From: Eledone cirrhosa
Taxonomy: Eukaryota
Direction: 5' to 3'
NCBI GenBank assembly: GCA_964016885.1
Contig: OZ024745.1
Coordinates: forward strand, 106,764,001 to 106,828,000
DNA: 64,000 nt
Shown here: positions 4,284 to 52,680 of the stretch, in pieces
How positions within the stretch are numbered: position 1 is the stretch's first letter
How the letters are laid out: every line of letters begins with the position of its first letter
Position numbers and translations under genes: made by a program
Notes under the pieces: model-generated
What the model was told of the DNA's origin: nothing
The model's input: the letters and a program-made list of their open reading frames with translations, nothing else
The model's database searches: none

Positions 4284-4509
4284 TCGTGTCAATTCTTAAA
4301 TTCTTAAATTATCTTGCTCAACAACACAACAAGCCGCCAGAAAAGAAACTCATGACCTTACGATCATGAGTTAAATAGTCACTCTGAAAATACTATTTTT
4401 GAAATCTGTGGAAGTGGGAGATGGATCACTTTTAAGTAACACAATACATTTAGATATCTAATAAAATAACTTTAAAAACTTGATTTAGTGGAATGATACG
4501 TGATTTGAA

Positions 4510-5085
4510 GAACCCTGCTGACGAGGACGCGGCATGGGGTTACCGACGAAAGAAACGCCGGCAAAGCCTGTGAGATCGAGGACCGGAGGCTAAGGCTGCC
4601 ATGCCTGACAGCTAAAGTGGCCTGTTGCCATCCAATGTCGTCAAACTTGATGTTGCATATCTCCTCGGCTGCTGCTCGGATACAAGTATCGAGGTCAGCG
4701 AGGAGAGATCCGTGGGTGTAGCACGGAGCGCTGCGAAGAGTATAGAGGAGCTTCGGCATGGCGAAGCAGTTCCTCAACAGAAAGAGAGCTGGGTGGCCGT
4801 CAATCAAGCCCAGTCGGCTCGTGAGAGTCTGAAGTTGTTGAAGCCTGGACCTGATGGTGGAGCGGATGGCCGGCGGGTGGATCGGTAACCCGATGATGAG
4901 GATATCCTCTTTGGGGGGTCACCTGTATCTGGTGGAGAATGGACCGCACGTCCGAGACGGAGGCTGCAAAGCTCTCAGCATCGTGGCTGACATTCACCAC
5001 CTCCGACTTGACAGAGGGGGCTCGGCTGAGGCAGGCATCGAGCAGATGGTCCCGACGTAGGCAGTTGAAGGCATTCCTCATGTTC
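4510..5085 (-). mobile_element. Non-LTR retrotransposon RT fragment, CRE-like clade
   Basis: GC-rich island. Frameshifted peptides RNAFNCLRRDHLLDAC and LFLLRNCFAMPKLLYTLRSAPC...WQQATLAVRHGSLSLRS...ALPAFLSS resemble the CRE motifs NAFNxxxR and ATLPxxxGGLGxR...A.PAFLAS. Confidence 0.7.
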
Positions 5086-23833: not shown

Positions 23834-25488
23834 CACTGGTCAACAGCCAAAATGCTTCTGAGACCAAAGTAGCAATTTCTAATGAATATCATGGTTAAAA
23901 CTGCTTGTTAGCTCTACTTTTCAACATACACGGACGTTTGTGGCGTATAACTACTATGGTTATACGGCACAGAAACGTTGTATAACTACTCTGGTTAAAA
24001 ATGCATACCTATATTTTGGATGCAAGATTGGTGACCAGGATAAGAAGTGGGCTCTTCACATATGCTGCAACACTTGTGCTACAAACATTTACCAATGGTT
24101 GAACAGGAAGATGAAAGGAATGCCTTTTGCTGTGCCAATGTCGTGGCAGGAGCCAACAGACCATACCAGCAATTGCTATTTCTGCATGGTACTTCCAGTA
24201 AAAAGGGGCTTGTCAAAGAAGAAAAAGGAATCCGTTGAATATCCAAACATTCCATCAACTATTCACCCAGTTCCGCATGGAGAAGGTGTACCTGTTCCTG
24301 ATGCACCAAGTTTGGTATCCTTCAAGTCAGATGAAGAAAGTGTTGAGGAGGAGAGCAGAAAATGATGACCGAGTGACCCAAATTTTGATAAAGCACTCTC
24401 CTCTAAACAAAGAACTCCATAACCTTGTCAGGGATCTACAACTACCTAAGCATAAGGCAGAGCTACTAGGCTCTTGTCTTCAACAGTGAAATCTCCTAGC
24501 ACTGATGTGAAGATTTCAAAATTCCGTGACTGTCAGCAGCAGTACAGCAATTCCTTCCTAATGGAAGGTGATTTATTGGCCTGCAACAATATTAATGGTC
24601 TGATGGAAGCACTTAATATATGTAAAAGCTATGGACAAATCCAGTCAAGGATTCAAGTATTTAACATCAAAATTCCCCTCACTGAGCAACGCTAAGATAG
24701 CAGATGGAGTCTTCACTGGTCCTCAGATTGGTGAGCTTCTTAAAGATAGTAACTTTGAATCAGCCCTTCAAGGGGAGGAGAAAGCTGCTTGGGAAGCATT
24801 CAAGTTAGTGGTGAAGGGAAGGAACCTATGAAGAATAGGTGGAAAACCTCATCGAGACTTAAAAGAACATAGGATGTAACATGTCACTTAAAATCCACTT
24901 TTTAGACTCACATTTAGACTTTTTTCCAGCCACCTGTGTGACAGTTAGTGACAAACATGGTGAAAGGTTTTGCCGAGATATTTCAAAAATGGAAAAGTGG
25001 TACTAGGGCAAATGGAACACAATGCTTGCAGACTATTTCAGGACAATGACAAGAGATGATTCTTCAGCCCACTATAAGTGTCAAGCATAAAAGGTAGAAA
25101 GTAGATACGAACTAGAGCTTAAAACATAATGACACATATTGTTCATTATAATAAAATAATCAAATATTACATGCCATATATCTTTAAGCCTATAGCTAAT
25201 AAGCATTCATCAAGGTGATTTTTGGATTCAGTACATGAAAATACATAAGAATTAAATATTTGTTTCTACTTTAGGCACAAGGCCAGCAATTACCCAGTGC
25301 ATTACTGGTACTTTATTTTATCGACCCCGTAAGGATGAAAGGCAAAGTCAACCTCGGCGGGATTTGAACTCAGATCGTAAAGGGACGCAACTATGCTGGA
25401 AAGCATGGCGTCCGACCCTCTACTGCCCATAAGAATTAAATAATCTCATTTAAAAAGCACACAACTTTTCAAAAATTGTTGACCAGTG
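23834..25488 (+). mobile_element. Decayed, internally deleted DNA transposon, probably Chapaev3 (CMC superfamily)
   Basis: 12-bp TIRs CACTGGTCAACA / TGTTGACCAGTG with flanks tta / ttg. Frameshifted transposase pieces: YFGCKIGDQDKKWALHICCNTC...MPFAVPMSWQEPTDHTSNCYFC, ELHNLVRDLQLPKHKAELLGS, FKYLTSKFPSLSNAKIADGVFTGPQI, MSLKIHFLDSHLDFFP...SDKHGERF. Superfamily assignment is from memory of CAC termini and 3-bp TWA TSD. Confidence 0.8.
25259..25427 (-). mobile_element. Main-family SINE nested in the Chapaev3-like element
   Basis: 15-bp TSD cataagaattaaata at 25244-25258 and 25428-25442. Confidence 0.88.
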
Positions 25489-27304: not shown

Positions 27305-27994
27305 TTACAACCTGTGCAACCAAATGGTTAATAATATACAGGAAAGCACCAATAGATTTGTAAACATTGTAGGTCCCAATGGCAACATTCCTGAAAATCT
27401 ATCATCGTATATTCTAAGATTTGTTCGGTTGCGACCATTTTTAGCAATCTCTGGATTTAAATTAAGAAGGTCCTGCCAGGCATTGTATGCAGCTGCTGTG
27501 AAGTTGTTATCGCCAGTGGTCATCAAATCAAAGACACAAGAGTCGAAGTAGAAACCTGCAACATTGGCATCACGACATGCCATTTCAGCTTCGACTCTCA
27601 ACATGGCAACTTTGTTTTTTATTTCGTATTCCTTGAGTTTCTCTTGTCGCTGAGCAAGAAATTTTTGGTAATTAATTTGTTGCGTCTTTGGACAGCCATT
27701 GACACACAACTCGGGTTGTTCATCAGGTGTAGATGATTGTGCAATTTCCTCAGGCATTCGAATCGAAAATGTAAAGTAGCGGCCAATGTGACGAACTAAA
27801 ATTGTAGTGTCAATGTATTTTATATGGATTTTGACGTATTTCGAAGGTTCTAGCACCTTTATTTCAATTCCTTTGCCGTGTCCGTAGTGTGTGCTTCCAC
27901 CTTCGAAGGTATTCGGCAAACTGCGTTCATGGGTGACGTATGTTATAGGTCTACTTGATCCACATTTATCGTTTTTTTTTATCATGACGGTTAA
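27305..27994 (-). CDS. RGM: Terminal coding exon of a repulsive guidance molecule (RGM/hemojuvelin family) gene: C-terminal vWD-like domain plus GPI-anchor signal
   Basis: 229-aa open frame LTVMIKKNDKC...SLPNTFEGGS...YVKIHIKYIDTTILVRHIGRYFTFSIRMPEE...LCVNGCP...C...FYFDSCVFDLMTTGDNNFTAAAYNAWQD matches RGM_C motifs I recognise (IxVRQxGRYLTFAIRMPE, LCxxGCP, YFQSCVFDLLTTGDxNF). Hydrophobic C-terminal tail LLVLSCILLTIWL*. Preceded by a polypyrimidine tract and acceptor ttctctttcatttcag|TTA (AG at 27996-27995), phase 0. Confidence 0.93.
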   Translation of the reverse strand, partial: LTVMIKKNDKCGSSRPITYVTHERSLPNTFEGGSTHYGHGKGIEIKVLEPSKYVKIHIKYIDTTILVRHIGRYFTFSIRMPEEIAQSSTPDEQPELCVNGCPKTQQINYQKFLAQRQEKLKEYEIKNKVAMLRVEAEMACRDANVAGFYFDSCVFDLMTTGDNNFTAAAYNAWQDLLNLNPEIAKNGRNRTNLRIYDDRFSGMLPLGPTMFTNLLVLSCILLTIWLHRL

Positions 27995-28049
27995 CTGAAA
28001 TGAAAGAGAAAAAATAACATTGTAATATAATGATGATAATAATAATAAT

Positions 28050-29090
28050 GATTTCTACTATAGGCACAAGGCCAGAAATTTTTGGAGAAGGGAATGTCGA
28101 TTAAATCGACTGCAGTGCATTACTGATGCTTTATTTTATTGACCCCGTAAGGATGAAAGGCAAAGTTAACTGCCAAGTAATAATAATACTTTATTGGCCA
28201 GAATAGCTAAGATGTTTTTTTTGGCACAGCACAAAAAATATATGGGATACAATACAAAAATATTTGGGCATACATGAATATGAGTAAAAATAAAACAAAT
28301 TATAAAATATCAATGATGAAAGTTCCACATAGGGCCAATTGAGAACCCTTACAAATTCAGAATTGGTGTAACCAGCAAGTGTAACTGGACTCTCCCAGCC
28401 GTCATTTTCTTGTATTTAGACATTATGTTTTGCCACTCTTACCCACTATTAAAGACATTTACCCCAAGTAGAATAATTGTTTCTACTTTTGGCACAAGGC
28501 CAGCAAATACCCAGTGTATTACTGGTACTTTAATTTATTTATCGACCCTGTAAGGATGAAAACGGTAAAGTTAACCTCGACGGGATTTGAACTCAGAATA
28601 GCAAGGGCCATAACTCTATGCGTCAAAGCATGGCGTCTGACCCTCTACCGATACTGCCAACCCATCGCCCAAGTAGAATAATAATGGTTTCTGATATAGG
28701 CACAAGGCTTGGAGGAGGGGAAAGACGATTAAATCCACCCCAGTGGTACTTTATTTTATGAACCCCGTAAGGATGAAAGGCAAAGCTAACCTTGGTGGGA
28801 TTTGAACTCAGAACATAAAGGGCCGTAACTCTATATTACAAAGCATGGTGTCAGACGCACTACTGATACTGCCAATCCACCATATAATAATTATATGATT
28901 TAGGTACAAACCCAGCAATATGGGGTTGGGTGGGAAGGGGAATGTTGATTAAATTAATTGTTTCTATTTTTTTGGCACAAGGCCAGCAATTATCCAAGTG
29001 CATTACTGGTACTTTATTTTATCGACCCCGTAAGGATGAAAGGCAAAGTTAACCTCGGCGGGATTTGAACTCAGACTGTAAAGGGTAAAT
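28050..29090 (-). mobile_element. Tandem cluster of main-family SINEs immediately upstream of the RGM acceptor
   Basis: Four copies or fragments on minus; one is flanked by TSD cccaagtagaataat. Confidence 0.8.
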
Positions 29091-46033: not shown

Positions 46034-46458
46034 AAAGTCAATGAAGAAACACACATACACAGCAGCTTCTGGTATTTGTGTATTTATTTTAACGACCTTG
46101 GAAGGGTGAAAGAAAGTTGATCTCGGCGTGATTTGAACTCAAGATGTAACCACAAGGTATTTTATCTCATGCTCTACCGACTTCGCTATACACACACACA
46201 TGCATGCATGATAAAACATTTATATTTAGGTGATCCTATTTCATGCGTCTATCCCGGTAAATATCTTCACACCAGATGTGTGTGCGTGGGAGCGCGTACG
46301 TGTTCATATTGCATATGTCTGGACTCAATTTAGCAGAAAAGGACTTATAAACCATTAAGGATGTTTATACTTCATATATAAACTAAGCTGATAACAAATT
46401 GGAATATGGTGTATGTACTTATATAGGGGCCTCTCCGCTCTCCTCACTCTCTCTCGAG

Positions 46459-46960: not shown

Positions 46961-47468
46961 ATTTGCAAACACACACAATGCCTACACAGAGACAAAAATC
47001 TATTTAATGTCCTGTTAGTGAAGATGTCTCATCAGAATGAAATTATCACTGTCCTCAAAACACTGAGTAAAGATGATTCGAGATCTCAGCAGTCGTTTCT
47101 ACGTATGTTTCTCTTTCTTTTTGGAATTATTGACGTAATGTGGAAGGAAATAGGGATTTTAAAAGTGTGCGTAACACTGGGTTCATTCATGGAAGGTGTT
47201 GAAGGGTAAGCTAAACGAAAAAATGCCCACGTTTTCATAATTATTTTCAAGTATGACAATTCAATAACACACATACACAACATATTCGTAACCCGAGTTT
47301 GACAGAAATACAAACCACATAGTATATTTGCATCAAATAAAACGAGGACCGGATGCAACTGCAATATATATATATATGCAGAGGTTATATTTAATTTGTT
47401 AGGATTCAACAAGCTTAAACATTTTTATAACTAATATAAAGCACTCAACAAGTTAGTGGAGTAAAAAC

Positions 47469-47857
47469 ACAATATATTAATAAATGGAAACTATATTTAT
47501 AAAACTATATTTATTTTATGATATATATATATTTCAAGGGCAACCAAGGCAAATTATGGTGCGCTTTCATCAGATAAAATACAGATTTGTTTTATAAATA
47601 AATATTGACATACCCGGAAAAAAGACAACCTTAACGGTTGAGGATAGTGGAGATAATATTTTATTGCGGGTAATCGAAATATCTCCACCATCCAGGAAGC
47701 TTCAACCGTTAAGGTTGTCTTTTTTCCGGGTATGTCATTTATTTATAAAACAAATCTGTATTTTATCTGATGAAAGCGCACCATAATTTGCCTTGACATA
47801 TATATAATAAAATAAATATGGTTTTATAAATATAGTTTCCATTTATTAATATATTGT
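47469..47857. repeat. Long fold-back inverted repeat (about 170-bp arms) carrying HHR-A; Penelope-like pLTR remnant
   Basis: acaatatattaataaatggaaactatatttataaaac...gacatacccggaaaaaagacaaccttaacggttga is mirrored by tcaaccgttaaggttgtcttttttccgggtatgtc...gttttataaatatagtttccatttattaatatattgt. Confidence 0.9.
47512..47581 (-). ncRNA. Type I hammerhead ribozyme motif (HHR-A), complete
   Basis: Minus strand: uauuuuau-CUGAUGA-aagcgca ccauaauuugccuugg u ugcccuu-GAAA-uauauauaua-UC-auaaaaua. Stem I is 8 bp and perfect. Stem II is aagcgca/ugcccuu (1 mismatch) plus cca/ugg. Stem III is an alternating-AU palindrome. Predicted AUC cleavage between 47520 and 47519. Confidence 0.75.
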
Positions 47858-47900
47858 ATATATATATATAATTTTTTTTCTTCTGTGATATATATATATA

Positions 47901-48100
47901 TTAATATAGAAAAGCTTCTACAGGACTAGAACTGTTTCATTCGTAAGAAATCATCAGGAAGCTGACTGTCCAAGTATGATGATTTCTCACGAATGAAACA
48001 GTACTAGTCCTGTAGAAGCTTTTCTATATTAAAACATTTATACTCTGCTATGTATTGAGTACCTTACTTACTGTGGTTACCCCCGATTGAACCCGGAATA
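47901..48100. repeat. Fold-back (56-bp arms 47901-47956 and 47977-48032, 2 mismatches, 20-nt loop) carrying HHR-B, plus the family 3' extension
   Basis: ttaatatagaaaagcttctacaggactagaactgtttcattcgtaagaaatcatca vs tgatgatttctcacgaatgaaacagtactagtcctgtagaagcttttctatattaa. Related sequence recurs at 50824-50963 and 63674-63735. Confidence 0.9.
47913..47963 (-). ncRNA. Type I hammerhead ribozyme motif (HHR-B), complete
   Basis: Minus strand: agcuuc-CUGAUGA-u uuc uuac gaa u-GAAACAG-uucuaguc-CUGUA-gaagcu. Stem I is 6 bp and perfect. Stem II is uuc/gaa closed by U.U. Stem III is ACAG/CUGU with a near-palindromic loop. Predicted GUA cleavage between 47919 and 47918. Confidence 0.8.
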
Positions 48101-48134
48101 ACACACACATACACATATATATATATATATATAT

Positions 48135-48223
48135 GAAAAGAGTCAGGACACCGACCGTTTCGACAGTTCGGATTTAGCTGTCGAAACGGCCGGAGCTCAG
48201 CCGTCAGGGTCCTCACTCTTTTC
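48135..48223. repeat. Fold-back containing the 3' half of a hammerhead (GAAAC-ggc...gcc-GTC)
   Basis: Outer arms gaaaagagt/actcttttc and inner 12-bp arms ccgtttcgacag/ctgtcgaaacgg. GAAACGGC-cggagctca-GCCGTC forms a stem III plus GUC site, but there is no CUGANGA upstream. Confidence 0.7.
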
Positions 48224-50175
48224 CTACTACCCACTCCAGTACCCTAAGTATGGTGCATTATGGTGCACCTGGTATCTTACCACACCCTTTTTGTTTTTAT
48301 ATATATATCCATGGGCCTTGATCATGAAGTCGTGGGACGTCGTAACGTAACATACGGTGTGTCTTGGGCATTTTGACCATCAAGGCCCGTTTCCTTCTGA
48401 GAGAGAAAGAGAAAAGGGGGTATGAATCGACCCTAGCACTCAACTGGTACTTTATCGACCGAAAAAAGATGAAAGCCTAAGTTCAATTCACAGGGATTTG
48501 AACTCGTAGTGCAGAGCACAGGGTCGAATATTGCAAAACATAATATCCGACGTTCAAGCAACTCTGCCAACTCACATATATATATATATATATATACATA
48601 TGTGTGTCTGTGTGTGTATGTGTGTATGTGTGTGTAACAAACGTTAAACACCAAGTAGTGTGCGCGTGTTCGCGTACACGTGCATGTGTGTTGGTGAATA
48701 TTTGTAAAACGAACAGAAATGTGCACATAATGCACATTAAGTCGCAATACAATGGGTAACAACAGATGGCAATAAGCCAGACGACACCTGATAATTAAAT
48801 ACGAGGTCATTCTGGGCGCTTACATATTTGCATCTGTCTGTACATGTGCGCAGGTTCGTCGTCGATGTCGCTTTCTATCCATAGCTTTTGTCAAAAGTAA
48901 TCAATTTGAGAGAGAGAAGGGGGCGAAGTTAGGAATATACACATACACAGTGAATTAGAGGGAAGAGAAATCGGATTAGACTGGATACCACACACACAGA
49001 GTATATATATATATATATAGTTATAGGAACACCAATTCCACACACATTGTCATCATTACTCGCCTACCTCTACCGAGGTAATGTAAACACACTTAGAAAC
49101 TGAAGACAACACTAGTGTTTCAATTGGACGCTACTTTAGTCTCTAGTCGAGACAGAGATATTAGCTAGCCAGCGCTAATCTTTAAAGAATTAATCGTATT
49201 AAAACTTTGAAGTAATTTTAAAATCAATCTCACCGTGTTATAGTAAGCAATCCAGAGAAATTAAGCTTGCCCGTTCCCAAACTAAACCTTGTCTTTAAAA
49301 AAATGGGAAGAACACATTGAATAGTGTTATAAATACAGGGTTTTAATACCTGGAACGCTATAATAGGTCTGCTTGGATAACAGCTCACATTGGATACATT
49401 GTCTAAAAATAAATTAGGATTATCATGGCTTGAACAATTTGATCTTAGACATGCTTGATCACAGTTGATCTGAGATTAAACAACCATGGATATACGCGCC
49501 GACAATAAGTTGAATATCTCAATTTGGACTCTTGGAAATATAGATTAATCTGAAAGAAGTAGAATAATCGTTAGCTGATTACAATCTGATCTGCCTTCCC
49601 TAATTGATATGTAAATCTGAAAGATTCTCAAAGATAGTAGGGAAGTTTCAATGGTTTGAGAAGGAAGAAAAGGAGGAAATATATAAAGTAAAATCTAATA
49701 GAAGAGAAATCTGTAAACTAAAATACAATCTTAAACGAATTTCTCACTAAATAACCTTCAATAAACTATAAAAATCGCAAAAACATATGGGGATATCAAT
49801 ACACCTAGAATCCATAACTCATATACATACACACACAGAGTCAGCAATTCATAAATAGAAATCTCACTAATAGCAATGTGAAGTTCACACAGGACGACAA
49901 AATAACACAGCAATAACAGAACTAACAATTTCCAGCGACTTTTAATATTTAGCTGACTAGCCAATCTTTTCATGAACAAAACATCATCACGCATATGGTA
50001 GCTTGTTTACTAGTCACCCGGAGCGGAGCGCGGCTGAGGCACCACCCGGACTGGGGTGAAGTGTCTATCCCTGCCACCCTCCCTTGCTTTTTTTGTTGCT
50101 TGATCCTTTTTTTATTTTTCCTCTTCGTTCCATTTAATAGTGTTTTGTTTTTCCTAGATTCTGTATTTCTATATA

Positions 50176-50355
50176 ATTGTTTCTACTTTTGGCACAAGGC
50201 CAGCAATTACCCCAGTGTATTACTGGTACTTTATGTTATCGACCCCGTAAAGATGAAAGGCAAAATTAACATCGGTGGGATATGAACCCAGATCATAAAG
50301 GGCCATAACTCTATGTTGCAAAGCATAGCGCCCACCCTGTACCGATACTGCCAAC
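50176..50355 (-). mobile_element. Main-family SINE
   Basis: Reverse complement of the family motifs. Confidence 0.8.
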
Positions 50356-50823: not shown

Positions 50824-50963
50824 CCCAAGGTGAAATCGGGAATAACCACAGTTAAAAGGGTACTCAATAGAGCGTAAACATTTTTTAAATATAGGAATGC
50901 ATGCCAGATGATTTCATACGAATGAAACAGTTCTAGTCCTGTAGAAGCCATTTCTATATTAAA
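50824..50963. repeat. Second, inverted and decayed copy of the HHR-B family
   Basis: 50833-50895 is the reverse complement of the family extension at 48021-48090. It is followed by cagatga-tttcatacgaat-gaaacag-ttctagtc-ctgta-gaagc (core mutated CUG->CAG). Confidence 0.8.
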
Positions 50964-52287
50964 TATATATATATATATATATAATCTATATATATAAAAC
51001 AAAATATGTATTTTCCCGCATTTATACATAGCAGTTCATGGTTATAAAACTGTCCCTAAACAAAAACAAATAGGTATGAAAAACGACAAAGAACCGGTCC
51101 CCCTCCACCACCACCACCACCACCACCACCACCACCTTCAGTTGAGGAGAGAGGGGATAAAGAGAAAGAGATAAGTGATAGAGATTGTGTAGTAAGACTG
51201 TAAATTGACACAGGTCGTCTTAATTCATACACTTCATTGGCCATTATTTACATAACTATTCAAAGTTTTACAAGGCTTAATGATATCTGGCTGGCAGTTT
51301 TGAAGTGGTATGACAAGAGAGCTGCGAAGAAATTTTATTTTATAGTGTGAAAAGTACATTGTTGGCGAAAAAATTCTCACCGAGTCAGTTTGTATGGGTA
51401 CCGGTCTGGAGGTTAGCAAAGAGAGCCTTCCTGGTTAGGTGTACACACACACAATGTATATATATATATATACACACACAAATAAAATATAGAGTTACAC
51501 ACTCATATAGGTACCCTGCAATGAAAACAAGCTCAAAGTATAAATACCGAGCATTATATAGTAATATATATGTATAAATATATATATATATATATATAAA
51601 AGATTAAATTTTTAAAACATTAGTGGTATCTTATACCCTCGTAATTTTAGACACGAAATTTACTGTGTTTATTTATTTATACACACACACACACACACAC
51701 ATATCTATATCTATATATATACTACGGTTTAGTAATAAAGATTATCTTATAAACGTGTAGTACCTTCACTCACGCACCCGGATGTATTGATAAAGCAATA
51801 TAAGACCACATCGTAAAACTATATATAGAAAGATGATAACCATTACGTGGTCACTTAGTTGGCTAGAAATACCAGTCAAATATTGCCTGAAATTAGACAC
51901 TACTCTCTCTCTAAGAAAGCAAAAATAGAGACACCAAGAAAGTATGCATATGGGATTTAAAGACACGATTGAGCTGGTTTTGAACATCAAACAAATGTGG
52001 GTAAATGTGTGTGTGCGCGCGCATGCCCATGCCGCTGGCTTCTCGGACAACATAAGACTGTCTAATAATATCATTGACCATCTCCAGTTTCGATACTCCA
52101 CCTCGCGCCACTTGCATGTGTTGTCTTGAAACACCAGCTTAACACTGATCGAATAGAACTATATGACCAAAAGCATTTCATCAATGATTATCGTACGTAT
52201 ATGTGATATGTAGGGCTACATAATTTAATATGGTGTGTGTGTGTATGTATATAGTAATAATAATAAATTTGAAGACTAAAATCTTGC

Positions 52288-52642: not shown

Positions 52643-52680
52643 TCCTCTGATGAAAGACTAGCACCCGAAACGTTAAGATC
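52643..52680 (+). ncRNA. Degenerate minimal hammerhead motif
   Basis: ct-CTGATGA-aagactagcaccc-GAAAC-GTTA-ag: core and palindromic AACGTT stem III present, but stem II and stem I pair poorly. Confidence 0.4.

Follow-up and report, generated by a model that had tools for sequence, protein, structure and literature searches.

A type I hammerhead in a head-to-head fold-back unit of a high-copy octopod repeat, probably a dead Penelope-like insertion into (TA)n

The minus-strand hammerhead described here, HHR-A, probably lies in a dead insertion: we read the locus as a fold-back, head-to-head pair of a hammerhead-bearing, high-copy octopod repeat, likely left behind when the 5'-truncated end of a Penelope-like element (PLE) inserted into (TA)n, and we infer PLE membership for the repeat itself. 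HHR-A occupies positions 47512..47581 of the window (the whole 64-kb stretch of DNA analysed), in which a descriptor scan finds it to be the sole strict type I hammerhead, and sequence, descriptor script and folds all have every core position intact. The original prediction of a complete hammerhead on the minus strand only is borne out by both sequence and descriptor (47581-47512).

On the minus strand the motif opens with the helix I 5' strand, tattttat (47581-47574), which forms eight Watson-Crick pairs with 47519-47512, followed by the core CUGAUGA (DNA CTGATGA, 47573-47567), a 31-nt helix II (47566-47536) with nine pairs, one C-C mismatch, a bulged U and a 10-nt loop, GAAA (47535-47532), the helix III insert TATATATATA, which is a (UA)5 palindrome (47531-47522), U16.1 (47521), the predicted cut-site base C17 (47520), and the helix I 3' strand, ataaaata (47519-47512); the descriptor script delimits the core, GAAA, the insert and the 3' strand of helix I. 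Cleavage is predicted between 47520 and 47519 on this strand, and the labels A14, U16.1 and C17 follow the usual hammerhead numbering. In the descriptor script CUGANGA, GAAA and U16.1-H17 are all present in the left arm, as type I membership demands, and three helices surround the core, of 8 bp, 9 bp and, for helix III as a monomer, up to 4 bp, with the open ends in helix I. Helix II is closed by A-U, not G-C, and has no bulge at that place. Folding further predicts an outer AU-rich helix, 47589-47598 with 47505-47496, that would lengthen helix I (predicted pair probabilities of 0.82-0.96).

The hammerhead is one part of a larger unit. Inverted arms had been proposed for 47469..47857 and are indeed present, but the unit is larger than that span, running from 47364 to 47870 with its tail and (TA)n junctions in the order (TA)n, 91-bp tail, left arm, shorter right arm placed head to head, and (TA)n. 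It begins at an (AT)7 tract (47364..47377), the likely insertion target, where the depth of the repeat also begins and before which loose ends are TA-rich in 81 contigs of sequencing run X1. The tail, a 91-bp 3' extension on the minus strand (47378..47468), belongs to the left arm only: it is covered by X1 at a summed depth of 3e5-5.5e5, compared to 4.48 in the unique flank, and by reads in X9 and X5, and its sequence is not present after the right arm. Arm alignment and family reads mark the left arm (47469..47679, minus strand) as the longer 5'-truncated copy of the element 3' end; 24 nt of it (47656-47679) have no mirror partner, and family reads extend from the left into 47648-47671, with a common change at 47667. 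The right arm (47680..47857, plus strand) is the shorter, inverted copy beyond the head-to-head joint, and the two inverted stretches, 47469-47655 and 47680-47857, are identical at 166 of 170 aligned positions. The closing (TA)n tract (47857..47870) is such that any target-site duplication is indistinguishable from the tract itself. No unit-length tandem copies were found at the locus, and the unit contains neither a palindrome at the arm junction nor a reading frame between the arms. The hammerhead lies near the element 3' end; its start is 113 nt away from the common end and 204 nt from where the tail stops.

The unit belongs to a dispersed high-copy repeat of the octopod genome. Sequencing runs were mapped to the left arm and its flank (47000-47700) at 80% likeness; X9 is a RAD (reduced-representation) library in which a few loci dominate the read counts, X5 comes from another organism than X1, and X6 was excluded from all counts (20 short low-complexity pieces). 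In X1, 5,641 contigs aligned and the summed depth reached 2.9e5 to 2.1e6 over 47360-47623, relative to the 4.48 of the unique flank, and 30,217 of 12,467,656 X9 reads aligned as well. X5 also carries the family, in 60 contigs, one of which is identical over 47552-47640. Family depth is confined to approximately 47364-47670, and the depth ratio corresponds to thousands to tens of thousands of copies, a crude figure that is not a true count. Copy ends cluster at 47364 and at 47474-47482, with TA-rich loose ends, and many copies stop at 47474-47482 just like the right arm. Further opposite-strand joints lie at differing places, for example 47581/47615 and 47394/47615, and head-to-tail unit joints are absent, both among 15 of the 27 joints. 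The 47581/47615 joint, at the first helix I base, was seen in one X1 contig and 16 X9 reads (3 starts), and a loose end at 47581 also occurs in two X5 contigs; some family copies may start at the 5' edge of the ribozyme. A candidate insertion ending at the cut site was rejected, as the loose ends at 47524 turned out to be the element's own continuation and not host DNA.

This anatomy points to a PLE. The inverted 5'-truncated copy with a tail at one end is the arrangement expected of EN+ PLE insertions, and the (TA)n preference of the Hydra clade is found at both junctions, with TA-rich loose ends at 47364 and 47474. A second hammerhead-like family adjoining the unit has the same anatomy and was counted for the PLE-type reading. 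The 91-bp tail, the missing G10.1-C11.1 pair and the missing extra base after A9 count against it. The arms contain no reverse transcriptase or GIY-YIG reading frame, their 5' ends translate to nothing recognisable, and no copies with long flanks were found in the metagenome (44 of 64 parts), prokaryote and viral scans. By modelling and by analogy with known PLEs, the unit would behave as a PLE dimeric hammerhead within a PLE-type insertion. Within a tandem element that is still active, helix III, a short palindrome (A-UAUAUA-U or A-UAUGUA-U), would be unable to close on itself, so that two ribozymes would join through this helix into a double hammerhead, cut after UA and process the element RNA. 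A parent element would supply the GIY-YIG endonuclease and the reverse transcriptase, which would then insert truncated cDNA at (TA)n, building the inverted arm and the one-sided tail, and the stump would decay in both arms after insertion.

A short non-autonomous hammerhead retroposon of about 300 bp, either retrozyme-like or a SINE-like PLE derivative, moved in trans by a PLE and with the same ribozyme chemistry, is a rather unlikely substitute for a truncated PLE end. Such a unit would fit the approximately 150-fold fall in X1 depth from 47600-47623 to 47648-47671, but steep 5' truncation yields the same depth profile and a private 8-nt loss near 47640 in the left arm also clips alignments there. 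At the 5' end, one X5 contig continues into a (GA)n tract, as a short unit would have it. Animal retrozymes are reported as PLE derivatives in the accessible part of a preprint (bioRxiv 10.64898/2026.07.22.740005), which also speaks for this possibility; however, retrozymes are head to tail in the available portion of PMC7229834, while the copies here are head to head, with no tandem at the locus or among 15 of the 27 joints. Nor does the locus, or the same set of joints, show the head-to-tail 150-450 bp units, each with its own hammerhead, that define non-LTR retrozymes. The truncated PLE end is the preferred reading.

The right arm carries a broken hammerhead (47759..47814, plus strand) in which the 3' strand of helix II is gone and GAAA reads GACA (C at 47797). 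With GACA and a broken helix II it fails the type I core test, and loss of A14 abolishes hammerhead cleavage. Its TA insert is 6 nt, 4 nt shorter than in the left arm, and UA instead of UC stands at the cut position, which is the common state of the family. Two alignments would explain the damage, either a 10-nt deletion between CCTTG repeats plus an A-to-C change, or a single 14-nt deletion plus a T-to-C change; in the sequence comparison, the CCTTG-bounded reading takes fewer events when measured against the family state. The lost helix II segment and the GACA that had been predicted are both there, and the CCTTG-bounded deletion is one of two alignments. That the mirror copy had been inactivated holds to the extent that the right arm is broken, but this is better read as neutral decay, as the left arm carries private damage too, namely the 8-nt loss mentioned above and a base at 47506 that differs from 96-99.5% of the family depth. 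Both arms have likely been drifting after insertion, the left one gaining 4 nt in its TA stretch and acquiring C as its cut-site base, and the right one losing half of helix II and its GAAA.

The left-arm form of helix III is not that of the family. At 47520 the plus-strand base is T, which is A in the RNA, in 20,756 of 22,408 X9 reads, and 1,365 of 22,413 have a 4-nt gap (160 starts). T and gap together make up 98.7% in X9, 93.7% of the depth in X1 (80 and 24 contigs, respectively) and 98% in X5, and in 19,528 X9 reads the GAAA side follows immediately behind 47528. The common form is therefore GAAA, a 6-nt insert and then UA. The insert reads UAUGUA in 14,276 of 21,775 X9 reads, 32% of the X1 depth (29 contigs) and 11% of the X5 depth (1 contig), and the remainder is mostly UAUAUA. 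The long (UA)5-UC form with C17 accounts for at most 1.3% of X9 reads, approximately 6% of the X1 depth and 2% of the X5 depth, even though the alignment favours the long form, and among 12 of the 39 indel rows the only other insert length is the 4-nt shorter one. Our statements on the helices draw on 40 of the 117 variant rows and on these indel rows, and those on loose ends likewise on a part of them. The (UA)5-UC form of the left arm is rare, and it likely arose at this locus or in a small subfamily.

Energies computed for these forms are secondary-structure estimates that leave out Mg2+ and tertiary contacts. With the left arm folded alone, helix I has pair probabilities of 0.20-0.60; helix II is at -6.0 kcal/mol with 0.77-0.99 for the eight scored pairs, and helix III reaches just 0.02-0.04 as a monomer. 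The helix III hairpin is unstable by itself, at +4.7 (6-nt) and +2.3 kcal/mol (10-nt), and the two-strand duplex is stable, at -3.2 or -2.2 (6-nt) and -8.0 kcal/mol (10-nt), so that by computation the palindrome needs a second copy to form a stable helix, as in PLE-type dimeric hammerheads. The best fold of two left-arm motifs is a double hammerhead, at -24.6 kcal/mol versus -16.0 kcal/mol for two minimum-energy monomers, which agrees with the original prediction that helix III could pair two RNAs; its description of helix III as an alternating AU palindrome is likewise upheld, by the sequence and the dimer folds. In a separate study, small PLE hammerheads reportedly cleave as dimers. In an in silico repeat series, the double hammerhead minus two monomer ensembles comes to +0.8 (n=3), -4.6 (n=5) and -6.9 kcal/mol (n=7), and the share of the active monomer fold is below 0.0001, 0.0015 and 0.010, respectively, never exceeding approximately 1%. 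Since the energies shift with repeat number and the active monomer stays at or below approximately 1%, length would matter physically, and (UA)5 is still predicted to need a partner. Folded as a whole, the inverted unit is at -235.8 kcal/mol with ribozyme pair probabilities of 0.0, and a transcript reading through both arms would, by this prediction, fold into one long hairpin in which the ribozyme is concealed and none of its helices forms. Trans-cleavage targets were searched for in the window, and none matched besides the two arms themselves.

It had also been suggested that a microsatellite used as helix III could vary in length and tune activity. The physical part of this idea stands in that the computed energies do shift with repeat number; the length-variable microsatellite as a design of the family does not, with the 6-nt insert commonest and (UA)5-UC rare. 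That repeat number varies among active copies and sets the balance between monomer and dimer cleavage is improbable. The helix comes in no fewer than two lengths, (UA)3 and (UA)5, and the computed dimer preference and the active monomer share both grow from n=3 to n=7, but the long C17 form is rare in X9, X1 and X5, many copies have a G within the repeat, the sister arm of the same insertion has the common 6-nt length, and the predicted hairpin would lock the locus. A sharp drop in X1 depth over 47517-47528, where X1 contigs break, could conceal some heterogeneity. With 143 tracts of at least (TA)5 in the window, slippage would be expected even if selection played no part. Instead of a tuning device, the long helix III is likely a local slip in a likely dead copy, and the AU repeat probably represents the self-pairing dimer helix that is usual in PLE hammerheads. 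What looks like a microsatellite is the simplest palindrome available to AU-rich RNA, extended in a single copy that is likely dead.

There is an equally slim chance that an abundant octopod PLE family builds helix III from its own UA target repeat, such that an RNA ending in (UA)4 after the UA cut would anneal to nicked (TA)n DNA and prime integration, with slippage alleles resetting a monomer-dimer switch. The analogy is with endonuclease-less PLEs, in which telomeric repeats beside hammerheads anneal to the target in a similar way. If true, this would link ribozyme cleavage to microsatellite targeting; however, the observed copy ends cluster 40-155 nt past the cut site instead of at the site itself, and few alleles are long. 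Under the reading as a truncated PLE end, one cephalopod family is added to the known PLE hammerheads and a high-copy repeat is marked, and the natural (UA)3, UAUGUA and (UA)5 forms of helix III offer a ready series on palindrome length versus dimer dependence.

Most of the variants covered look compatible with pairing. No change in CUGAUGA or GAAA is found among 40 of the 117 variant rows. Positions 47516, 47517 and 47524 often carry G in place of A, which still allows U-G pairs in the minus-strand RNA, whereas plus-strand pairs would break. At 47561 and 47541, which pair with each other in helix II, the bases vary as a C-G to U-A exchange requires, at 699/1,388 and 509/1,093 in one read direction and 252/1,655 and 155/678 in the other (unphased). 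The bulged U at 47543 is absent in 587 of 1,776 reads, and in the part of the loose ends covered, consensuses carry alternative helix II sequences that still pair. A change at 47562 (661 of 3,047 X9 reads; CpG) would break a helix II pair unless its partner at 47540 changes too.

The original prediction had named a chance match in AT-rich DNA as what would speak against it, and the controls indicate that the motif is not one. Out of 300 block-wise dinucleotide shuffles of the window, two gave any match with helix I of at least 4 bp and helix II of at least 3 bp, and none had a helix I of at least 6 bp. Long TA tracts are not kept by shuffling, and a second control from metagenome core-pattern matches therefore matters: 0 of 120 (118 loci, 44 of 64 parts scanned) combined helix I of at least 4 with helix II of at least 3, and the 118 loci had zero BLAST similarity to the element. 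None of seven viral core-pattern matches passed a relaxed descriptor or had hammerhead helices, and later pattern scans found no copies of the element in viral sequences or in prokaryote genomes. Rfam returned zero hammerhead matches at the gathering score and none among the 24 matches up to E=10, with only hairpin-type chance matches below the gathering score; the missing match lowers membership of curated Rfam families only. A chance hammerhead in an AT-rich, MITE-like DNA fold-back element is very improbable, since 0/300 shuffles and 0/120 pattern controls reach the structure, the variants covered appear to keep pairing, and the uneven arm ends, the one-sided tail and inversion points that differ between copies are unlike fixed terminal inverted repeats, despite a GC content of 0.37, many TA tracts, the lack of an Rfam hammerhead and an isolated 83-nt fold with no extra stability over shuffles (z = -0.14).

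Several other features of the window were recorded. The second hammerhead-like family lies at 47891-48093 and 50829-50974 and reads CTGATGA-ttcttacgaat-GAAA-cagt(a/t)ctag-TC; it has head-to-head arms, a tail of approximately 60 bp on one side and (TA)n on the other, and all three copies end at or just before the core, with helix I incomplete. At 52647-52675 (plus strand) and 59744-59714 (minus strand), CTGANGA...GAAA strings are followed by short palindromes (CG, CTAG) and fail the helix II test; they may be decayed PLE hammerheads. Nested inverted repeats at 48150-48240, beside (TA)n at 48115-48134, may be a further small fold-back insertion. A common dispersed repeat (families D16 and D17), presumably an octopus SINE, has copies at 46114-46140, 48452-48505 and 50236-50289. 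A large exon of repulsive guidance molecule (RGM) occupies 27305-28054 (minus strand) and is 84% identical to the Octopus bimaculoides RGM protein, which marks the host as an octopod, with no upstream RGM exon found within the 64-kb window, and open frames at 4472-4918 (minus strand) and 23886-24365 (plus strand) presumably are fragments resembling non-LTR reverse transcriptase and a DNA transposon protein, respectively.

Our findings are closest to the minimal hammerheads of metazoan PLEs as they appear in the accessible parts of Cervera and de la Pena 2014 (PMC4209133). These are type I motifs with CUGANGA/GAAA, a palindromic helix III, alternating AU included, and a long helix II, all of which the unit shares, together with AU-rich flanks, dispersed truncated copies and opposite-strand pairs, the latter given there as 100-700 bp apart; dimer cleavage and low activity are reported for them, and the dimer view is upheld in the portion available of a later review (PMC6765202). 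Fig. S3 of PMC4209133, as far as available, lists GAAA-UAUA-U(C/U) in Drosophila virilis Penelope and four further Drosophila entries, and the searched supplement file gave no cephalopod entry. In contrast to the PLE hammerheads of these sections, the helix III insert is longer here (6 nt in the family, 10 nt at this locus) and helix I is 8 bp, and the G10.1-C11.1 pair and the extra base after A9, both in the consensus at over 80%, are missing. Exceptions to the closing pair of the PLE consensus are found among Hydra-clade motifs in the available text of Craig et al. 2021 (PMC8557442), a source that also describes the in vivo role of PLE hammerheads as still unclear.

The insertion itself resembles the PLE unit with an inverted pLTR, which the consulted portions of Arkhipova et al. 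2013 (PMC3846280) describe as head to head with a tail and those of PMC8557442 describe for EN+ PLEs as an inverted 5'-truncated copy, a tail at one end and (TA)n targets. Shared features are an inverted copy with the shorter 5' end, a one-sided tail and an AT-rich target; unlike these units, ours has a tail of 91 bp instead of 30-40 bp, no inter-arm frame and no junction palindrome. Animal non-LTR retrozymes, in the available parts of PMC7229834 and bioRxiv 10.64898/2026.07.22.740005, are likewise short, low-GC, high-copy type I hammerhead units found in molluscs, but they form head-to-tail tandems, in contrast to the head-to-head inversion seen here. Searches of the literature within reach, from which most subscription papers fall outside, found no report of this family or of a microsatellite helix III, and five short family probes had no match in the supplement of PMC8557442 as searched. 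The motifs listed for the Hydra clade in the accessible part of that paper differ in sequence from the unit. Points of likeness are their helix III, with 3-4 pairs and a loop of 1-3 nt, and A, U or C at the cut site; Neptune elements likewise favour microsatellites. In O. vulgaris, PLEs occur in abundance and some of them are recent, according to the available portion of PMC13282606. A close likeness in PMC8557442 is with the Hydra-clade EN+ PLEs, including Hydra-1_Obim of Octopus bimaculoides, which share with our unit the (TA)n preference and a hammerhead approximately 100-200 nt from the 3' end and, in the case of Hydra-1_Obim, an A-U pair beside the core as in HHR-A.
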